Assembly: GCA_014729775.1 (NCBI GenBank)
Contig: WJJJ01000032.1
Span: forward strand, 1 to 63,895
Direction of reading: 5' to 3'
DNA length: 63,895 nt
Source: Candidatus Omnitrophota bacterium
Lineage (GTDB): Bacteria > Omnitrophota > Gorgyraeia > Duberdicusellales > 4484-171
This document shows positions 41,323 through 48,553 of this stretch, one piece after another. Under the pieces are notes generated by a model. That model saw nothing but the letters and a program-made list of their open reading frames with translations. It made no database searches and had not been told where the DNA came from. The first letter of the stretch is position 1. Every line of letters begins with the position of its first letter. Position numbers and translations under genes: made by a program.

Positions 41323-41577
41323 ATGAAACAATATCTGTTATGTGGTATAGTACTCATGGGGTTGGGGTGCGGCGCGCCGCAGAAAGAGCAGTCGTCGCAG
41401 GCCGAAAAGACGCCGGTGTCCGCGGCCGTACAGGAAGAGAAGGAGACGGTGCGTACACCATCACGGCGCGCCGGCCGGAAAAAAGACTGGTTTTTTTCGG
41501 TGCGTGATCCCCGGACCGAAACGGCGGTATATTACGACCAGTACCGGAACGTGGTCGCCCGGGACGAAAAGGAGTGA
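41323..41577 (+). CDS. small putative lipoprotein
   Basis: Lipobox-like 'LMGLGC' at residues 12-17. 84 aa, no recognised family. Confidence 0.35.
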   Translation: MKQYLLCGIVLMGLGCGAPQKEQSSQAEKTPVSAAVQEEKETVRTPSRRAGRKKDWFFSVRDPRTETAVYYDQYRNVVARDEKE

Positions 41578-41581
41578 GCGC

Positions 41582-41947
41582 ATGAAAGAAAGAAGGGAAT
41601 GGATCCGGCTGAGCACCGATGTGAATATCAAATGGACTCCGGTTGATACGGAAGGAGGCCTGTGCGAGTATAACGATCAGGAGAGTAAAAATATCGGTAC
41701 CGGAGGGATCTGCATGTTGGTGGACGAACCGGTAGAGTCCGGCGACTGCGTGTATTTGGAAATAGAACTTCCCAACGCAAGGGTGATCCGGGCCAAGGGC
41801 ATGGTGATCTGGAAAAGCGAGTTCGAGGTGATCGGCGGACAGCAGGAGAACAAGCAGGAGATCGGAGTGAAATTTTACGATTTAGCCGAGGATGACCGTC
41901 ATGAGCTGGAGCGATTCGTATTTTCCAAAGTAAAAAAGGGAAGTTGA
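41582..41947 (+). CDS. PilZ-domain protein (c-di-GMP receptor)
   Basis: An RxxxR motif sits at the N-terminus ('KERREWIRL') and a D/NxSxxG-type motif at 'QESKNIGTGGICM'. About 121 aa from the ATG at 41582. Confidence 0.65.
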   Translation: MKERREWIRLSTDVNIKWTPVDTEGGLCEYNDQESKNIGTGGICMLVDEPVESGDCVYLEIELPNARVIRAKGMVIWKSEFEVIGGQQENKQEIGVKFYDLAEDDRHELERFVFSKVKKGS

Positions 41948-41948
41948 T

Positions 41949-42347
41949 TTGCGGACAAAAGCGAAAAAATCCGTACTTATATTTATCTTCGCCGCGGTTT
42001 CTTTTTCTCTCCCCGGAGTATGCGCGAATTCTTTATACACGAAGTTGGTGGAGGCGCTGTCCGGATCAATGCCCCGGTTGTACGTCGAGGAGATGGCGGA
42101 AAAAAACTCGGGCAAACGAATCGGCGGCAGTGCCGAGCTGGTAAGCGTAAGCGTGAATACCAAAGGGTATACGGTCGCCTATTTGCGTCCGCGTGACGCT
42201 GAAAGCGTGGGGATCGCGGTATTCGTCCTGCCGAACAAAGCGAAGTACGTTCGTTCTTTACCCTCCGGTCACCGGACCAAATTCGTGGGTACCTTCGTAG
42301 GGCTCACCATGAATACGCTCGTCGTCAAGGACGGCTACGTCCGTTAA
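41949..42347 (+). CDS. hypothetical secreted protein
   Basis: TTG start and signal-like 'SVLIFIFAAVSFSLPGVCANS'. No family was recognised. Confidence 0.3.
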   Translation: MRTKAKKSVLIFIFAAVSFSLPGVCANSLYTKLVEALSGSMPRLYVEEMAEKNSGKRIGGSAELVSVSVNTKGYTVAYLRPRDAESVGIAVFVLPNKAKYVRSLPSGHRTKFVGTFVGLTMNTLVVKDGYVR

Positions 42348-42392: not shown

Positions 42393-42422
42393 TTGTTTTG
42401 CCCTCATCCCGCGTGGTATATT
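42393..42422 (+). promoter_or_regulatory. candidate promoter of the riboswitch-led operon
   Basis: TTGTTT (42393-42398), 18 nt spacer, TATATT (42417-42422), with an extended -10 TG at 42414-42415. Confidence 0.4.
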
Positions 42423-42520
42423 CGAATGAAAAGCGCAAACCTCGAAAGGGCAATTTCCGGGTTTTCCGGGATGCGCAAAGCCGCGGGTTCCTCAAGAGAA
42501 CAGCCAGGCTACCGAAGGTT
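42421..42520 (+). ncRNA. GEMM-I-like (c-di-GMP-I) riboswitch aptamer candidate
   Basis: Conserved GEMM-I blocks appear in the correct order. These are 'GCGCAAACC..GAAA', 'GGGCAAU-UUCCGG-GUUUU-CCGGGA-UGCGCAAAGCCGCGGGUUC', a P2 hairpin (GUUC/GAAC with flanking GG/CC and GCC/GGC), and 3' 'GGCUACCGAAGG'. Compare V. cholerae Vc2 '...GGGCAAACC..GAAA..GGGACGCAAAGCC..CCGG...GGUUACCGAUGG', recalled from memory. No covariance-model search was run. Confidence 0.55.
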
Positions 42521-42544
42521 GAAGATTCGGTAGCCTTTTTTTTT
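42507..42544 (+). terminator. intrinsic terminator forming the riboswitch expression platform
   Basis: The 10-bp stem is GGCTACCGAA (42507-42516) / TTCGGTAGCC (42526-42535), with a 9-nt loop and then T9 (42536-42544). The 5' arm is shared with the 3' end of the aptamer. Confidence 0.75.
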
Positions 42545-42615
42545 AATATGCCCTGGTTGACGGGAATGGGGATTCTCTTTCAATCAGTTATTTATCACAC
42601 CAAAGAAGGGGGAGT

Positions 42616-43101
42616 ATGAAGAAGGTATTGTGTTTGTGTGCATTGAGTTTTTTCATCTGTGGGCTCGCGTATCCGTACGGGAACAACGATCCGATGGAAT
42701 TCAGCGTGCGGGGGCATTATGAGCCGAAGCTGGAGGTAGAAATACTCGATACCTATGACAATGATCAGGACACAGAGATTCAAGTCGGCGATCTCCAGCA
42801 GGGCGACAATATCCTGGAGAATTTGGTGAAAATCGGATTTTCCAGCGCGTCACCGTTGAAACGTGAGACTGTACATCTCCGGGCAGAAAATCCGGAGCAG
42901 TTAAAGTTTAAATGGCGCTACAACATGCTTTCCGGCAATACCCATACCGGAGGGGATATGTGGCATGGAAGACGCAGCTGGAACGCGAATTTCAAGGCCG
43001 GAGAATCATTAGAGATCGACGGGAACGTGCTTGTTCCCGAAGATACGCCGGCCGGGAATATCTCGCGTCAATTTACGGTGACGGTAGTCGAATCGTTGTA
43101 A
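42616..43101 (+). CDS. secreted beta-sandwich protein, putative fibre/fimbrial-type subunit
   Basis: Signal peptide 'MKKVLCLCALSFFICGLA'. The C-terminal strand 'LVPEDTPAGNISRQFTVTVVE' resembles the terminal 'aG.Y.g.f.vtv.Y' strand of SCPU/DUF4402-type subunits. RBS is AAGGGGGAG. The family call is tentative. Confidence 0.45.
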   Translation: MKKVLCLCALSFFICGLAYPYGNNDPMEFSVRGHYEPKLEVEILDTYDNDQDTEIQVGDLQQGDNILENLVKIGFSSASPLKRETVHLRAENPEQLKFKWRYNMLSGNTHTGGDMWHGRRSWNANFKAGESLEIDGNVLVPEDTPAGNISRQFTVTVVESL

Positions 43102-43188
43102 CTTCACCTGAATATGATACGGCGCCCCGGCTGTAACCGTAGTCCGGAGGAGCCGGAAACAAACGTCCTTACCGCCGCCCGTCCCTAA

Positions 43189-43240
43189 AGAGAGAGCCTT
43201 CCGCTGATCGAAAAGTGAGAGCGGGAGGCTCTCTCTTTTT
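43189..43240 (+). terminator. strong intrinsic terminator after the first operon gene
   Basis: The 16-bp stem is AGAGAGAGCCTTCCGC / GCGGGAGGCTCTCTCT (one G-U pair), with a 16-nt loop followed by a T-run (43236-43240). Confidence 0.8.
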
Positions 43241-43317
43241 ATAATACTACCTGTAGGGGGATTCGTCTGGGCAAACTGATTGACACTCAATAAATTGTGT
43301 GTTAAGGTAAAGAAAAA

Positions 43318-44556
43318 ATGAACAGAATACTTGCCGCCTGCACTTTTTTTCTTTGCTGCTGTCTGTTTCCGTTCGGTGCGGTCCCCCTTTCCATTACCGC
43401 CCGCCCGCCGAGTTTCGATCTTTATTGCGCTCCCCGTTCCGTGCGTACCTTTGTGCTGGAAGTGAATAATACCAACGAAAACCGGGAGCTGGAGCTGAAG
43501 CTCTCCGTGGAAAGTCTTTCTTTCGACCCCGACGGCAATATCAATTTTCGCACACTGGAGAAAGATCCCGAAGGTGTGGCCAGCTGGATACAGCTTCCCG
43601 TTACTAGGGTGAAACTCGCGCCGCAGGAAGACCGAGAAATTCCGCTGCGGCTCAGGGTGCCGCCCAAGATCCCGACCGGCGGCTACTACGCCGCGGTGAT
43701 CGTGGAACCGGCCCAAGATACGGCCGCGCCGCGTACCGGGTTAAACGTATCGGTGCGGCTGGCGTCGATTGTCAGGATCACGGTGCGGGGCCAGGATCCT
43801 CTGCGCAAAGACGCGCGCGTCGCTTCCGTCGAACAGATCACCGGACCGGTTGATCCGGAAGAGCTGACCGAAGCGGAGGTCCAGGGTATCAGGGGGAAGG
43901 TCGCGGAAGCATTTCCCAATACCAACGGACTGTTTTTCATCGCCAAGGTGGAAAACACCGGGAATATTCACGTGGAAACCGAGGGGAGTATTTTAGTGAG
44001 AACCGGGGAGAGACGCCGGGCCGGGATGGCCAAGTTTGCCGCCGAACGGGGGATTGTGTATCCGGGGTCGTCCCGTTTATTTGTGGCTCACTTTCCTTAT
44101 TTTCTCGCGGAAGGCGACTACATCGCGGAAGTGCGGCTGGGGTACGGCGGTGCGCGGCCGTTAATCCAGAAATTCCCGTTTACGATTCGCGTGGCGCGTG
44201 ACGGCACGGACGAAAGCGGGGATATCTTTTCGCCGCTGGAGATCATTCCGAAGGAGATCGAACTTTCCGCGGTGCCCGGCGCGTTCCGTACTCAGAAGGT
44301 ATTGGTGTTCAACAGGTTGAGGGAAGATCTCGCGCTCTCGGTATCGGCGCGGGGTGCCCTCAGGGAATGGATTCAATTCGTACAGCCGGTAGTGCCGATA
44401 AAAGAGGCACAGGAAAAAAATATAATTTTCAGAGTAAGGGTGCCTCGCTCCGCGGAGCCGGGTGACTATGCGGGGATGCTGGTACTCGAAGATGCCGCTG
44501 CCGGCATTCGGGAGGAGATCCCGGCGGTCATTACTCTTCATTCAAGGACAAGATGA
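43318..44556 (+). CDS. secreted protein with two Ig-like (NEW3/DUF916-like) beta-sandwich modules
   Basis: Signal peptide 'MNRILAACTFFLCCCLFPFGAVP'. Module 1 is 'FDLYCAPRSVRTFVLEVNNT...LRLRVPPKIPTGGYYAAVIVEP'. Module 2 is 'IELSAVPGAFRTQKVLVFNR...FRVRVPRSAEPGDYAGMLVLED'. Both end in the P..P.G.Y motif typical of such folds. Confidence 0.5.
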   Translation: MNRILAACTFFLCCCLFPFGAVPLSITARPPSFDLYCAPRSVRTFVLEVNNTNENRELELKLSVESLSFDPDGNINFRTLEKDPEGVASWIQLPVTRVKLAPQEDREIPLRLRVPPKIPTGGYYAAVIVEPAQDTAAPRTGLNVSVRLASIVRITVRGQDPLRKDARVASVEQITGPVDPEELTEAEVQGIRGKVAEAFPNTNGLFFIAKVENTGNIHVETEGSILVRTGERRRAGMAKFAAERGIVYPGSSRLFVAHFPYFLAEGDYIAEVRLGYGGARPLIQKFPFTIRVARDGTDESGDIFSPLEIIPKEIELSAVPGAFRTQKVLVFNRLREDLALSVSARGALREWIQFVQPVVPIKEAQEKNIIFRVRVPRSAEPGDYAGMLVLEDAAAGIREEIPAVITLHSRTR

Positions 44557-46211
44557 GGAAATATTACAAATTTTTCACCGTATTGATAAGCTGTCTTTTT
44601 TGCCTGTCGCTGCCTTGTGCGGCCCAGCGGGACTTTTATGATTACCTTCAGGAAGAGGAGACCGCAGGGCAAGTGATGGTCAACAACGTGTTTTATGAAA
44701 CCGACGTGCGCCAGGCATTACAGGATATTTCAGCCCAGACTGAAGTACCCATTGTGGTCGGTCCTTCGGTGGAAGGGTTTGTGAGCCTGGAACTGAAAAA
44801 CGTGCCGCTGGAAGACGCGCTGACCATGCTCCTGGTACCGCTGGGCTATTCCTACAAAAGGGTCGAGAACTACTACATAGTGGGTCTTGCCAAGCCGGAA
44901 AGTCCGGTATTCGATATGCTGGCCAAGACCGAAGTGATCCGGCTCAGTTATATCAAAGCGGCCGATGCGGTTGAATTGATTTCGGAGTTTTTTAAACCGT
45001 ACGTGAAAGCGAACGAATACAATAATTCGGTCGCGATCACTGCGCCGCAGAATATTATTGACCGCTTTAAGGAAGATATCCGCAAGATCGATCATCCTCG
45101 TCAGCAGGTAATGATGGAAGCCCTGGTGGTGGAGGTATCGGAATCAGGCCGCAAAGAACTCGGCGTGGAGTGGGGCAGTATGCAGGAAGGCGGGTTTTCG
45201 GTAAGCCCTCCCGGTGACGTGGAATATACCAATTATTTAGGAATCGGGAGCCAGAGCGACCAGTATGAAGTCGCCGGGACGGTCACCCGCGACACCCTGC
45301 TGACGCTGAAGACCCTTATCCAGACCGGGCGCGCTTCGATCCGGGCCAATCCCCGTATTGCCGCGCTCGACGGGGAGGAGGCGAGTATTTTCATCGGCCG
45401 GGAAGAGTGGTTTCTGATCAATACCGGTTCCCAGGCCTATCCTTATAATACCCTGCAGTCGATTAAAACCGGAGTGACGCTTAAGATTACTCCCAATGTC
45501 TCGGCCGACGGACAGATTACCGTGAAGATACAGCCGGAAGTAAGCGAGGTCGTGGGCACGCAGAGCGCCCAGCAGCTGCCGATCGTCAATAGCCGCAACG
45601 TTTCCACGACGATCCGGGTCACCGACGGGGAAACGATCGTCATCGGCGGACTGCGTCAGCAGAATACCCAAACGACTGAGCGGCGCACGCCCGGTCTGGG
45701 CAGACTGCCGCTGGTCGGCGGATTATTCCGCAGTGACAACATGACCTCCGAAGACAAAGAAGTGCTGATTTTTATCACTCCCCATCTTTCGCCTCGGGAA
45801 ATCATCGAGCTGGGGAACAAGACCGCCGCGACCGTAGACGCGCCGCGCGGCCGGGCGTCTGACCAGCGGATGACCGTAGCCGATCTGGCGGTGCTGTCAA
45901 ACTCCCAGCGGGAGCAGGTACGGGAGTATATTTCTCTCGTGCGCAATGTCTTAAGCGACGCGCGGTTGAACGATTTACTGCTCAGCGTGCACGACGATTC
46001 CGTGCGCAGCCGGGCGGTGGTGATCCGCTTTGACGTCAGTCAGCAGGGCTACGTCCAGCGCTTCGAATTTCTTCAGCCGTCCGGTTCTCCGGTCGTCGAT
46101 CGGGTGATCGAAGAGGCGGTAAGGGAAGCCAGCCCGTTCCCGCCCTTTCCCAAAACCATCGGCAAAAAGGCTCTTACCGTGCGCATTCCGTTTTACCTGC
46201 AGCGCCGCTGA
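44553..46211 (+). CDS. secretin-family outer-membrane channel with N-terminal STN-like domain and C-terminal TonB-C-like domain
   Basis: Domains in order: signal peptide; STN/N0-like 'VRQALQDISAQTEVPIVVGPSVEGFVSLELKNVPLEDALTMLL'; a Secretin_N repeat; the secretin core 'PIVNSRNVSTTIRVTDGETIVIGGL...LPLVGGLFRS...VLIFITPHL'. A ~120-aa tail follows with 'VVIRFDVSQQGYVQRFEFLQPSGSPVVDRVIEEAVREASPFPPFP'. ATGA overlap with the upstream gene. Confidence 0.8.
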   Translation: MRKYYKFFTVLISCLFCLSLPCAAQRDFYDYLQEEETAGQVMVNNVFYETDVRQALQDISAQTEVPIVVGPSVEGFVSLELKNVPLEDALTMLLVPLGYSYKRVENYYIVGLAKPESPVFDMLAKTEVIRLSYIKAADAVELISEFFKPYVKANEYNNSVAITAPQNIIDRFKEDIRKIDHPRQQVMMEALVVEVSESGRKELGVEWGSMQEGGFSVSPPGDVEYTNYLGIGSQSDQYEVAGTVTRDTLLTLKTLIQTGRASIRANPRIAALDGEEASIFIGREEWFLINTGSQAYPYNTLQSIKTGVTLKITPNVSADGQITVKIQPEVSEVVGTQSAQQLPIVNSRNVSTTIRVTDGETIVIGGLRQQNTQTTERRTPGLGRLPLVGGLFRSDNMTSEDKEVLIFITPHLSPREIIELGNKTAATVDAPRGRASDQRMTVADLAVLSNSQREQVREYISLVRNVLSDARLNDLLLSVHDDSVRSRAVVIRFDVSQQGYVQRFEFLQPSGSPVVDRVIEEAVREASPFPPFPKTIGKKALTVRIPFYLQRR

Positions 46212-46372: not shown

Positions 46373-46445
46373 GGCGAGGTAGCTCAGAAGGTAGAGCGAG
46401 GGACTGAAAATCCCTGCGTCAGGGGTTCGATTCCCTTCCTCGCCA
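46373..46445 (+). tRNA. tRNA-Phe (GAA)
   Basis: 73-nt cloverleaf folded by hand: acceptor GGCGAGG/CCTCGCC, D-arm GCTC/GAGC, anticodon arm AGGGA-CTGAAAA-TCCCT, T-arm AGGGG-TTCGATT-CCCTT, discriminator A. CCA is not encoded. Confidence 0.9.
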
Positions 46446-46588
46446 CTTTCACGTTTTCATTGAAAAACGCGCGTGCCGACGCATCAAGCGACGTAGGCAG
46501 ATGCGTGAGCGAGCCGGGGAACAACGTCGAATACATGTTGCTGCGCAACCGTTGTTGCCCTTCCTCGCCACTTTCACGTTTTCATTGA
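46423..46588 (+). repeat. direct repeat copy A
   Basis: Copy A comprises the tRNA-Phe 3' 23 nt, a 124-nt hairpin unit, and a second copy of the tRNA 3' end plus trailer. The 31-nt block CCCTTCCTCGCCACTTTCACGTTTTCATTGA occurs at 46433-46463 and 46558-46588. The 124-nt unit between them (46446-46569) ends in a long hairpin (46509-46568). Confidence 0.8.
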
Positions 46589-46681: not shown

Positions 46682-46797
46682 AGTATTTTCTCTTCTTTGA
46701 AGGAAGGGGAGTGACAGCCCCGGTGACAGGTCGGGGCGTCAGAGAGGGGAAACGTAGTTTCCCCTTTATGAGGAGGAGTGCAGCGACGAGCGTCAGC

Positions 46798-46961
46798 GGG
46801 TTCGATTCCCTTCCTCGCCACTTTCACGTTTTCATTGAAAAAAGCGCGTGTCGACGCAGGCAGCGGCGCCGGCCGCACGAGAAGCGAGCCGGGGAACAAC
46901 GTAAAATACATGTTGTTGCGCAACCGTTGTTGCCCTTCCTCGCCGCGCTCACGTGTTCATC
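46798..46961 (+). repeat. direct repeat copy B
   Basis: Copy B comprises a pseudo tRNA-Phe 3' end, a 124-nt hairpin unit, and a fourth copy of the acceptor 3' strand. Positions 46798-46858 match 46423-46483 at about 59/61 nt. The 31-nt block recurs at 46808-46838, the unit spans 46821-46944, and CCCTTCCTCGCC recurs at 46933-46944. The offset between copies is exactly 375 nt. Confidence 0.8.
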
Positions 46962-47095
46962 TTCTTTTTAAACATACTTCATATCGTATCGCGCATCGAA
47001 ACACCATCCGCGCGTCTGCTTCTTCGCGAAAACCATTCGCTTCTCAGCACATTCTCGGCACTCAATCCGGTGTATCATGGAACAGGGAGGTGGAT

Positions 47096-48553
47096 ATGCG
47101 AATCCTGTGGGTAGGAGTGTGTCTATGGATGAGTGTGATCCCTTCGGCGTACGCTGCGTTCCAACCGGTGCACGGCATTGACGATGCCTACATCGTGGAC
47201 GCGGAATTTTCTCCGTTCGATCCTTCCGTCATCTACGCGGCGTCGCGCAACAGCCTCTATGTGCGCGCCGGCGGTCGGGAGCGTTTTGACAAGCTCGCGG
47301 TTTACAAGGATGAACACGTCCGCCGGGTAATATGCGATCCAACTGTTGCCGGACAAATATATGTGGTGACCTCACGCAGTGTGTACCTGCGCGACGGAAC
47401 CCAGGAAAAAGTCTTTTCCGTGCCGGACGAAGAACAAATCCTTTCCGCCGCGATAGAGGAGAAAGCCATTTATGTCGGCACAGACCAAAATCTGTATTAT
47501 TCCGGACGAGGACTGCGGCAGTGGAATACCGTGAAAGGAATGCGGGAAAATCCGGTGTACGGTCTTACTCCCGCTCCGGCCGGGATGTATTGCGCGTCGG
47601 CAAAAGGGGTCCTGCTGCTGGAAAGGGCCCGGATCGTGAAACGGCTGTTCGTCTTCCCTTCGTCGGAGGAGGAGGCGTTCGAAGAAGCGCGGGTGGTCCA
47701 TGTCGATATCGCGAACCCTCAGAAGATATGGCTGGGAACTACCCGCGGATTATACCTTTCCGAGGACGGAGGAGGGTCGTGGCAAAAACTGTATCTTCCC
47801 GGCATGCAGAGCAGTGCGGTCGCCGATCTGGCGCAGACATCACTGGCGGCCCAGTTCCTCTACGCGGCTACCGAGCACGGCGTGTTTCAGATCCATACCG
47901 GTAACCGGCGGGTGAACGTAATTTACGAGGGGCTTGTCTCCTCGGACGTCAACGCCGTTATCTTTGCTCCCGAAGGGGTAATGTATGCGGCCACCCCGCG
48001 GGGATTTTTCCGGCACGCGTATTTTTCCCCGTTCGACCCGCCGGAATCTTTGCGTAAAATACTTGTGCGGGAGCCGGATATTCGGGAAGTGCAGGAAGCG
48101 GTATTACGCTATAACGAGATCAGCCCGGAAAAAATCCGCCGGTGGCGTAACAGTGTCCGCTACCGGGCTTTGTTCCCCACGGTTAATCTTGATTATGACA
48201 AAACTATTTACGGCACTGCGGGCGGGAGCTCTTACGACGGGAAATGTTTTGTCGGCCCGAGGGACTGGGGAGTCCGTCTTTCCTGGGATGTCGGCGATCT
48301 GATATGGAATCCGTATGAGGACGACATTGATACCCGTTCGCGGCTCAATACCCAGCTGCGGCTTGATGTCCTTGATGAAATCAACCGGGTGTATTTTGAA
48401 CGGCTCCGGCTCAAGATGCGTCTGGCGTCGGGCGAGCTTACGAAAGAGGAATATCGAAAAACCCACTTGCGCATGCGGGAGCTAACTGCTATCCTAAATG
48501 GATATACCGGCGGTTTTTTCAGCCGGCGCTGTAAGGAGCTCCATGAACGATAA
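47096..48553 (+). CDS. secreted BNR/Asp-box beta-propeller-like protein with helical C-terminal region
   Basis: The ATG at 47096 is preceded by GGGAGG. Signal peptide 'MRILWVGVCLWMSVIPSAYA' and Asp-box 'SEDGGGSWQKL'. The upstream part of the 46778 ORF only translates the tRNA-derived repeats. Confidence 0.5.
   Translation: MRILWVGVCLWMSVIPSAYAAFQPVHGIDDAYIVDAEFSPFDPSVIYAASRNSLYVRAGGRERFDKLAVYKDEHVRRVICDPTVAGQIYVVTSRSVYLRDGTQEKVFSVPDEEQILSAAIEEKAIYVGTDQNLYYSGRGLRQWNTVKGMRENPVYGLTPAPAGMYCASAKGVLLLERARIVKRLFVFPSSEEEAFEEARVVHVDIANPQKIWLGTTRGLYLSEDGGGSWQKLYLPGMQSSAVADLAQTSLAAQFLYAATEHGVFQIHTGNRRVNVIYEGLVSSDVNAVIFAPEGVMYAATPRGFFRHAYFSPFDPPESLRKILVREPDIREVQEAVLRYNEISPEKIRRWRNSVRYRALFPTVNLDYDKTIYGTAGGSSYDGKCFVGPRDWGVRLSWDVGDLIWNPYEDDIDTRSRLNTQLRLDVLDEINRVYFERLRLKMRLASGELTKEEYRKTHLRMRELTAILNGYTGGFFSRRCKELHER

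Follow-up and report, generated by a model that had tools for sequence, protein, structure and literature searches.

A conserved gene pair encoding a WxLIP/CfaA-like protein and a secretin, and a neighboring predicted c-di-GMP-I riboswitch, in a Candidatus Omnitrophota genome

Gene content of the locus

To our knowledge, every characterised secretin is the outer-membrane exit of an ATP-driven machine, that is, a type II secretion system (T2SS), a type IV pilus (T4P), a Tad system or a type III secretion system (T3SS), or of a phage assembly complex. In this study, a secretin gene was examined on contig WJJJ01000032.1 of a Candidatus Omnitrophota bacterium (64 kb; the whole stretch is called the window below), where it is the last of three co-directional genes that follow a predicted cyclic di-GMP (c-di-GMP) riboswitch. 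The basis for every result is in silico only. The three genes had been delimited in a first-pass annotation of the window. Gene 1 (42616..43101, + strand) is an open reading frame (ORF) for a signal-peptide protein of 161 amino acids (aa), with a strong Shine-Dalgarno (SD) sequence (AAGGGGGAG). Gene 2 (43318..44556, +) encodes a predicted periplasmic protein of 412 aa, and gene 3 (44553..46211, +) a secretin of 552 aa. The start of gene 3 overlaps the stop of gene 2 by 4 nt, and gene 3 is predicted to be translationally coupled to gene 2 by this ATGA overlap, as the annotation had read it.

Conservation of genes 2 and 3

Gene 2 has three close homologs (39-42% identity), two of them from metagenome-assembled genomes (MAGs) labelled Omnitrophota. 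The loci that carry them (L001, L002, and L087) are sisters of the window locus, which is the fourth of this Omnitrophota type. Sister and related loci were viewed over ~10 kb on each side. The three sisters are laid out alike: a small secreted ORF on the minus strand comes first and the gene 2 homolog second. In L001 and L087 the next gene encodes a secretin with a TonB_2 tail; the contig of L002 stops immediately after gene 2. A secreted protein of ~200 aa is encoded further upstream in L001 and L002.

A profile scan of 185,579 species genomes yielded 105 relatives of gene 2. A secretin gene was found directly downstream of the gene 2 homolog (C0 below) in all of the 13 closest loci, representing at least five phyla, and likewise in L087. 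The 13 loci belong to Omnitrophota, Kosmotogaceae, Planctomycetia, Zixibacteria (four), Ignavibacteria (five), and one unclassified bacterium, and their secretins are 36-55% identical to gene 3 from N0 through the secretin domain. With WOR-3 and a MAG labelled 'Firmicutes' included, the gene 2-secretin pair was observed in ~18 loci. The first-pass annotation had proposed that the three genes be checked for conservation as a trio; genes 2 and 3 are indeed kept together in these ~18 loci from at least seven lineages, whereas gene 1 is an orphan.

Outside Omnitrophota, one to three paralogs of a small-protein family (C1, ~230-345 aa) come before the pair, two or three of them in the ORF clustering; the family has the motifs W.WFVRKPG.Y, GF..L, LWNKI, and CEY.D.A.ITL. 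Homologs of C1 and of gene 1 were sought in a database of 5.8 billion clusters, in which C1 is represented by 66 clusters, all named 'hypothetical'. A reverse search seeded from C1 recovered the order C1, C0, secretin in a WOR-3 chromosome and in the 'Firmicutes' MAG. No Pfam match at E <= 1 was found for C1, for gene 1, or for the ~200-aa Omnitrophota proteins, and C1 has no sequence match in the PDB. In two loci, an extra secreted protein is encoded between the two C1 paralogs (L011:2914-4404 and L013:2270-3112); that of L011 contains SprB/PKD-like repeats. The inserted protein may serve at a tip or as an adhesin. The Planctomycetia locus has an FMN riboswitch (L007:4085-4224; 81 bits) just past the secretin gene, apparently with no relation to the module.

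Gene 2 and C1 proteins

Gene 2 matched PF06030 (WxLIP_PGBD, DUF916) with 27.8 bits at a gathering score of 27.3, and a homolog from Zixibacteria matched it with 29.9 bits. An AlphaFold2 model built from four sequences (pLDDT 84.6) consists of three beta-sandwich domains. Gene 2 had been described as an Ig-like protein of two modules; the Ig-like character and the length of 412 aa are retained, while the model predicts one domain more. After generic repeated-Ig matches had been set aside, the best compact PDB matches in Foldseek were the Enterococcus faecium WxLIP (9i25_C/9i1y, E about 1e-12 to 1e-13, TMt about 0.5) and the CFA/I chaperone CfaA (4y2o/6k73, TMt about 0.58, E about 1e-9). The fold also resembles ASH/PapD-like domains. 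No DUF3324 match was found in Pfam, and the C-terminus is a beta-strand followed by five polar residues, with no helix. Like WxLIP, CfaA is a tandem-Ig protein that retains a beta-sandwich partner by strand complementation. WxLIP binds its partner via an inserted beta-hairpin strand (PMC10599100). Gene 2 is best explained as a divergent WxLIP (DUF916)-like, pilus-chaperone-like protein and a conserved partner of the secretin, as judged from its Pfam match, its predicted fold, and its place before the secretin gene.

More distant relatives of gene 2 were found in Saccharibacteria, Actinomycetota, Bdellovibrionales, and Gammaproteobacteria; they have PF06030 and no secretin. Six such loci (L027, L029, L030, L048, L070, and L081; ~7-15 kb in each) from Saccharibacteria, Bdellovibrionales, and Gammaproteobacteria contain one to three WxLIP_PGBD-like paralogs, adjoining two or three paralogs of a ~350-aa family and mostly a giant protein of 1100-2400 aa, again with no secretin. 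They look like a broader uncharacterised type of surface-protein cluster that occurs in diderms and in bacteria of the Candidate Phyla Radiation.

The C1 family was modelled with a pLDDT of 88.9. The best PDB match has an E-value of 1.6e-3. CfaB, CsuA/B, FimA/F/G, TasA, and archaeal cannulae subunits predominate among the best 50 matches, and all of these are donor-strand fibre subunits. The C1 proteins are modelled as beta-sandwiches that weakly resemble subunits of this kind. The first-pass annotation had proposed a module of subunit, Ig-tandem protein, and secretin, and the predicted structures of C1 and gene 2 point to a subunit with a chaperone-like binder. Assignment of C1 to the WxL domain was considered and rejected, since neither Pfam nor the PDB gave a sequence match and the WxL chain of 9i25 is outside the best 50 fold matches. 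A phage or inovirus origin of the module was likewise rejected, as viral contigs contain no relatives of either the gene 2 or the C1 family.

The secretin and the search for a motor

Gene 3 has the layout of a short secretin. Pfam matches were obtained to the secretin domain (PF00263, 153 bits), to Secretin_N, or N1 (PF03958, 38.5 bits), and to STN/N0 (PF07660, 33.4 bits), in agreement with its first assignment. The protein is below the cut-off of every secretin equivalog in NCBIfam (GspD 195 vs. 351; PilQ 192 vs. 284; MshL 132 vs. 250; SctC 129 vs. 238; HofQ and PilN lower), and it is about equally similar to the solved structures of PilQ and GspD.

A C-terminal tail of the TonB_C/TonB_2 type (residues 485-548; 46005..46196, +) had been missed in the first-pass annotation. 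It matched PF13103 with 35.6 bits (gathering 22) and TIGR01352 with 38 (cut-off 27.1), and its sole relative in the PDB is HasB, a TonB paralog (2m2k, E = 7e-4). The tail is also present in the L001 and L087 secretins and absent from the other linked secretins. Its role may be to tether the secretin to peptidoglycan or to bind a partner's beta-strand. The linked secretin of Zixibacteria RBG-1 (L008:11623-13935; 770 aa) has instead an N-terminal region weakly matching the FadL/Toluene_X beta-barrel family, a lineage-specific elaboration different from the Omnitrophota tail. On the WOR-3 chromosome, a separate TonB_C protein of 133 aa is encoded ~6 kb upstream of C1-C0-secretin (L089:3907-4308), possibly by coincidence.

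The sequences were scanned for the Walker A, Asp-box, and His-box motifs of GspE/PilB-type ATPases and for the prepilin motif. In the window, no GspE/PilB-type Walker A except that of FtsK and no prepilin motif was found, and Pfam identified only housekeeping functions among ~50 ORFs (e.g., xseA, pnp, ftsK, suf, and glycoside hydrolases of family 57, together with ilv, leu, aro, ftsH, folP, dacA, and pdxJ). Both results bear out the earlier statement that motor, platform, and prepilin genes are missing from the window. Neither a GspE-type ATPase signature nor a prepilin motif was detected in 296 kb around the 18 secretin-linked loci (+/-10 kb). No usher was found in the window or in related loci. 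Gene 2 gave no Pfam match to a PapD-type chaperone; its fold does resemble CfaA.

Riboswitch

The GEMM-I-like aptamer proposed in the first-pass annotation was recovered when the whole window was scanned against 4227 Rfam families. The c-di-GMP-I (GEMM-I) aptamer (RF01051; 42439..42516, +) scored 37.2 bits with E = 1.1e-3. The gathering score of the family is 35, which makes the match borderline, by 2.2 bits; this is due to a P1a loop of GUUUU instead of a GNRA tetraloop and to a shortened P1b. GEMM members without docking of a GNRA loop to its receptor exist, and for this reason the docking was not taken as strictly defining.

Aptamers of the GEMM-I clan were found in two of the three sister loci with 64-66 bits, hence in three of the four loci of the Omnitrophota type. 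Those of L002 and L087 have GNRA loops (GUGA and GAAA, respectively) and score best against the variant models RF03167 and RF03168. Ligand-contact positions were located by aligning the cmscan output to the consensus lines of RF01051, RF03167 ('GGC'), and RF03168 ('UAU'); the assignment of the variant names GGC and UAU to these positions is our assumption. The three contact bases are the canonical G, A, and C in the window, L002, and L087 aptamers. In the window, the G stands 5' of a GC pair, the A follows the closing GC pair, and the C is the first one of 'ACC'; we take these to be equivalent to G20, A47, and C92 of Vc2. A cGAMP-type (GEMM-Ib) or variant ligand was rejected on these grounds. 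Six base pairs are kept by compensatory changes in an alignment of the three sequences. No aptamer was found in L001 or in any of the 12 non-Omnitrophota loci scanned. A metagenome scan for further loci of the Omnitrophota type gave three distant matches only, and conservation of the riboswitch is for that reason judged on four loci.

The aptamer is followed by an intrinsic terminator (42506..42544, +) with an 11-bp stem, a 9-nt loop (hairpin 42506-42536), and a U-run. The 5' arm of the terminator (AGGCUACCGAA) includes the four final paired bases of the aptamer together with its 3' tail, so that the two structures are predicted to be mutually exclusive. In the unconstrained minimum free energy structure the terminator forms and P2 is broken; the hairpin alone has -16.1 kcal/mol. 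When the aptamer was enforced in folding, only a 6-bp remnant of the terminator was left. The simplest reading of the folding predictions is a transcriptional ON switch. The window aptamer is by its sequence a genuine c-di-GMP-I riboswitch, with ligand binding predicted.

It adds a new member to a known class. The aptamer architecture, the canonical contacts, the intrinsic-terminator platform, and the location ahead of a gene for a secreted or surface protein are shared with GEMM-I (RF01051, clan CL00126), many members of which are typically associated with such genes. The window copy differs in the missing GNRA tetraloop and the shortened P1b. The sister copies differ in being oriented the opposite way and in controlling another small ORF, apparently from OFF-type or translational platforms.

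Gene 1 and transcription units

Gene 1 has no Pfam or NCBIfam match, and a word-index search of the 5.8 billion clusters gave no homolog. In an exhaustive phmmer search, the last ~30 aa alone matched Ig-type repeats of giant proteins. No link to the gene 2 domains was detected by hmmsearch or hhalign. The C-terminal strand had been likened to fimbrial, SCPU, or DUF4402 proteins; this assignment was rejected because no family match supports it and the only similarity is the generic Ig-repeat tail. Nor does gene 1 qualify as a conserved fibre subunit, being an orphan with no detectable relation to proteins found in the same slot elsewhere. Judged by these searches, it is an orphan in a variable slot upstream of the conserved pair, and it is best explained as a small, fast-evolving, Sec-exported protein that is predicted to be rich in beta-structure.

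A putative sigma-70-type promoter for the riboswitch and gene 1 was read by eye at 42393..42422 (+; TTGTTT, 18-nt spacer, TGgTATATT), as in the first-pass annotation. It is readable in the sequence but was not called by a consensus scan, and it is kept as putative for that reason. Between genes 1 and 2, a terminator-like scan detected a weak hairpin with a T-run (43217..43243, +), possibly a partial terminator. A promoter-like element for genes 2 and 3 follows at 43280..43308 (+; TTGACA, 17-nt spacer, TAAGGT) and ends 9 nt before the ATG. A -35 box of the form ATTGAC(A/G) is found ~35 nt before the gene 2 ATG in the window, L001, and L087 alike. No SD sequence precedes gene 2 in these three loci, and gene 2 has essentially no leader. 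In L002, TTGACA/TATAAT is present upstream of the gene 2 homolog at a shifted position. The conserved -35 box together with the missing SD points to a promoter that serves gene 2 and the secretin alone, and to an operon mRNA with little or no leader.

The aptamers of L002 and L087 lie on the opposite strand, ahead of the small divergent ORF and not of the secretin operon. In L087, the SD is within an aptamer helix and the AUG comes right after it, which suggests a translational OFF switch, the reverse of the logic predicted for the window. Since genes 2 and 3 have their own conserved promoter and the sister aptamers drive the divergent ORF, the window riboswitch probably gates gene 1 only. The first-pass annotation had let it gate all three genes. 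Read-through is the most that can be kept of this claim, given the separate -35 box of gene 2, the hairpin and T-run after gene 1, the opposite strand of the L002 and L087 aptamers, and the lack of an aptamer in L001 and in the 12 non-Omnitrophota loci. The best-supported reading of these sequences is that c-di-GMP is linked to the locus and that its direct target is a variable small secreted protein, in the window gene 1.

The small divergent ORFs of the sister loci are homologous to each other (L001:9680-9907, L002:9363-9692, and L087:167-406, all on the minus strand) and encode secreted proteins of 75-109 aa. A strand of the form 'S-I-[ST]-I-P-[KR]-I' at the N-terminus and a hydrophobic strand at the C-terminus are joined by a charged low-complexity linker. 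GEMM-I aptamers precede two of the three. No homolog of these ORFs was found in the window.

Surroundings of the locus

A gene for a PilZ-domain protein, a c-di-GMP receptor, is found directly upstream of the riboswitch (41504-41947). Between it and the riboswitch there is an ORF for a signal-peptide protein of 132 aa that was not assigned to a family (41949-42347). Both are absent at L001 and L002. On the other side, the locus ends, as stated earlier, at a tRNA gene, tRNA-Phe (46373..46446, +; Rfam 70.5 bits, also called by ARAGORN). The 3' half of tRNA-Phe and ~140 nt downstream of it (46423-46585) are repeated 375 bp further on (46798-46960) with ~90% identity. The duplication looks like an att-like scar of integration or excision next to the locus. 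The annotated start of a 591-aa ORF (46778-48553) falls within the repeat, so the ORF probably begins further downstream.

Comparison with known systems

With the secretins of T2SS, T4P, Tad, T3SS, and phages (GspD, PilQ, RcpA, SctC, and pIV), gene 3 shares the N0/STN, N1, and secretin layout, and with pIV and RcpA also the short form with two N-domains. It differs from them in scoring below all equivalog cut-offs, in having linked ATPase, platform, or pilin genes in 0 of the 18 loci, and in the additional parts, that is, the TonB_C tail in Omnitrophota and the N-terminal FadL-like region in one Zixibacteria locus. Phage systems differ further in that gene 2 and C1 are without relatives in viral contigs.

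WxL clusters of Firmicutes encode a WxLIP, composed of DUF916, DUF3324, and a transmembrane helix, and two WxL proteins. One WxLIP per two WxL proteins has been reported for most of these clusters (PMC10599100). The likeness to the module lies in the PF06030 match of gene 2, in its fold match to the E. faecium WxLIP, and in gene order, as the wider module has one WxLIP-like gene after about two small beta-sandwich paralogs (1:2). Unlike the WxL clusters, the module is hosted by diderms and has a secretin as part of its operon; gene 2 has neither a DUF3324 match nor a C-terminal transmembrane helix, and it has an extra third domain. The partners in the module are without the WxL signature of Pfam, and the best 50 fold matches of C1 do not include the solved WxL chain.

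Chaperone-usher pili (CFA/I CfaA-CfaB, archaic Csu, and type 1 Fim) are similar in having Sec-exported partners and a tandem-Ig periplasmic binder, which gene 2 resembles in the case of CfaA, and the C1 model resembles the CfaB, CsuA/B, and FimG pilins, although these structural matches are weak (E >= 1.6e-3). The module has no ATPase, which makes a shared energy logic plausible. It differs from chaperone-usher systems in lacking an usher (PF00577), both in the window and in the related loci, and a PapD-family Pfam signature, and its outer-membrane part is a secretin, a multimeric gated channel of another superfamily. No description of a module of subunit, Ig-tandem protein, and secretin was found in the searchable literature, in line with the earlier suggestion that the module corresponds to no described secretion or fibre system. 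Pfam and NCBIfam have no entry for the secretin module, which we regard as secretin-based export with a new set of partners.

Interpretation and alternative explanations

The observed features, the way in which they are conserved and kept in order, the resemblances in fold, and the lack of motor genes nearby are most readily combined as two linked, separately transcribed units, with genes 2 and 3 as the Omnitrophota variant of a wider export module. We give this reading about even odds (roughly 0.5). In the first unit, the ligand-bound aptamer would sequester the 5' arm of the terminator and allow read-through into gene 1. The second would be a two-gene export module with its own promoter, made up of a periplasmic protein with three Ig domains and a minimal N0-N1 secretin; the wider module would have the order of one to three C1 paralogs, gene 2 homolog, and secretin. 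Sec would export the small beta-sandwich proteins across the inner membrane. The Ig-tandem protein would capture them in the periplasm by beta-strand complementation and hand them to the secretin, and after passage they would be released, displayed, or polymerised at the surface. The driving force would be folding or assembly, as in chaperone-usher and curli systems, and not a dedicated ATPase. In this scheme, the choice of the cargo or accessory protein to be supplied (here gene 1) would fall to c-di-GMP. The interaction of the parts, the direction of transport, the source of energy, and the formation of fibres are proposed by analogy with WxLIP-WxL and chaperone-usher systems.

A more specific form of this reading is held only tentatively. 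It would be a motor-less 'chaperone-secretin' pathway in which a WxLIP/CfaA-like protein holds donor-strand-type subunits that exit through the secretin, with accessory proteins wired to c-di-GMP in Omnitrophota. Such a pathway would be spread over Omnitrophota, Zixibacteria, Ignavibacteria, WOR-3, Planctomycetota, and others.

Several points weigh against the reading of two units. Gene 2 has no Pfam match to a PapD-type chaperone, and its PF06030 score is barely at the threshold. No Foldseek match of C1 reaches E <= 1e-3, and the solved WxL chain is outside the best 50. The window aptamer is unusual in that its loop is not GNRA and its P1b is truncated, and it exceeds its threshold by only ~2 bits. 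Gene 1 is not related to C1, to the ~200-aa proteins in the same slot of Omnitrophota loci, or to the small divergent ORFs by hmmsearch or hhalign, and only its position speaks for it as cargo. Inspection covered ~10 kb per side, and T4P, T2SS, or Tad genes elsewhere could supply a motor.

This last point leads to the main alternative, in which the secretin is the channel of a conventional T4P, T2SS, or Tad machine encoded elsewhere. Gene 2 would then be a lineage-specific periplasmic accessory, functionally like PilP, TsaP, GspC, or a pilotin, and gene 1 and the riboswitch would be unrelated neighbors. Secretins are sometimes encoded apart from their motors. The closest solved relatives of gene 3 are PilQ and GspD, its best NCBIfam scores are those for GspD and PilQ, and the lack of conservation of gene 1 and the separate promoter of genes 2 and 3 would fit as well. 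We nevertheless regard this explanation as unlikely. The secretin is far below every equivalog cut-off, and in ~18 loci from at least seven lineages it is always found beside the gene 2 family, outside Omnitrophota also with C1, and never beside pilMNOP, gspC-M, or tad; neither a GspE-type ATPase nor a prepilin motif was found within +/-10 kb. The predicted folds of the partners are, moreover, those of Sec-exported beta-sandwich subunits and not of type IV pilins. Somewhat more doubtful still is the proposal that gene 2 is itself the exported product, a WxLIP-like adhesin or scaffold that leaves through the secretin, by itself or in complex with the small proteins, and decorates the cell surface like WxLIP-WxL complexes on Gram-positive walls. 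WxLIP, which gene 2 resembles, is a surface protein in Firmicutes (PMC10599100). The monoderm relatives in Saccharibacteria and Actinomycetota have no secretin and must be located at the surface, and related clusters in diderms include giant surface proteins. Against this, the strict 1:1 coupling and the ATGA overlap fit a stoichiometric component of a machine better than a cargo, gene 2 is without the C-terminal transmembrane anchor of WxLIP, and its fold matches the CfaA chaperone (TMt about 0.58) no less well than WxLIP.

The riboswitch raises a separate question, namely whether the match is due to chance or the aptamer binds another ligand, leaving c-di-GMP without a link to the locus. A margin of 2.2 bits (E = 1e-3), the non-GNRA loop with the truncated P1b, and the preference of the sister aptamers for RF03167 and RF03168 could be taken in this sense. 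Such an explanation is nonetheless very improbable, as the three contact positions are canonical in all three aptamers, the window aptamer is in a 5' untranslated region with an overlapping terminator, aptamers of the GEMM-I clan occur independently with 64-66 bits in homologous loci, and a PilZ-domain gene is directly upstream.

If the reading of two linked units with an export module is true, the module would point to a new way for diderms to put fibres or adhesins on their surface, and it would provide an evolutionary link between the WxL/WxLIP surface system of Gram-positive bacteria and a diderm counterpart. In Omnitrophota, the locus would also have a direct c-di-GMP input through the riboswitch. 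The genes of the module are concrete candidates that can be tested for a part in attachment structures of Omnitrophota, Zixibacteria, and further uncultured lineages.

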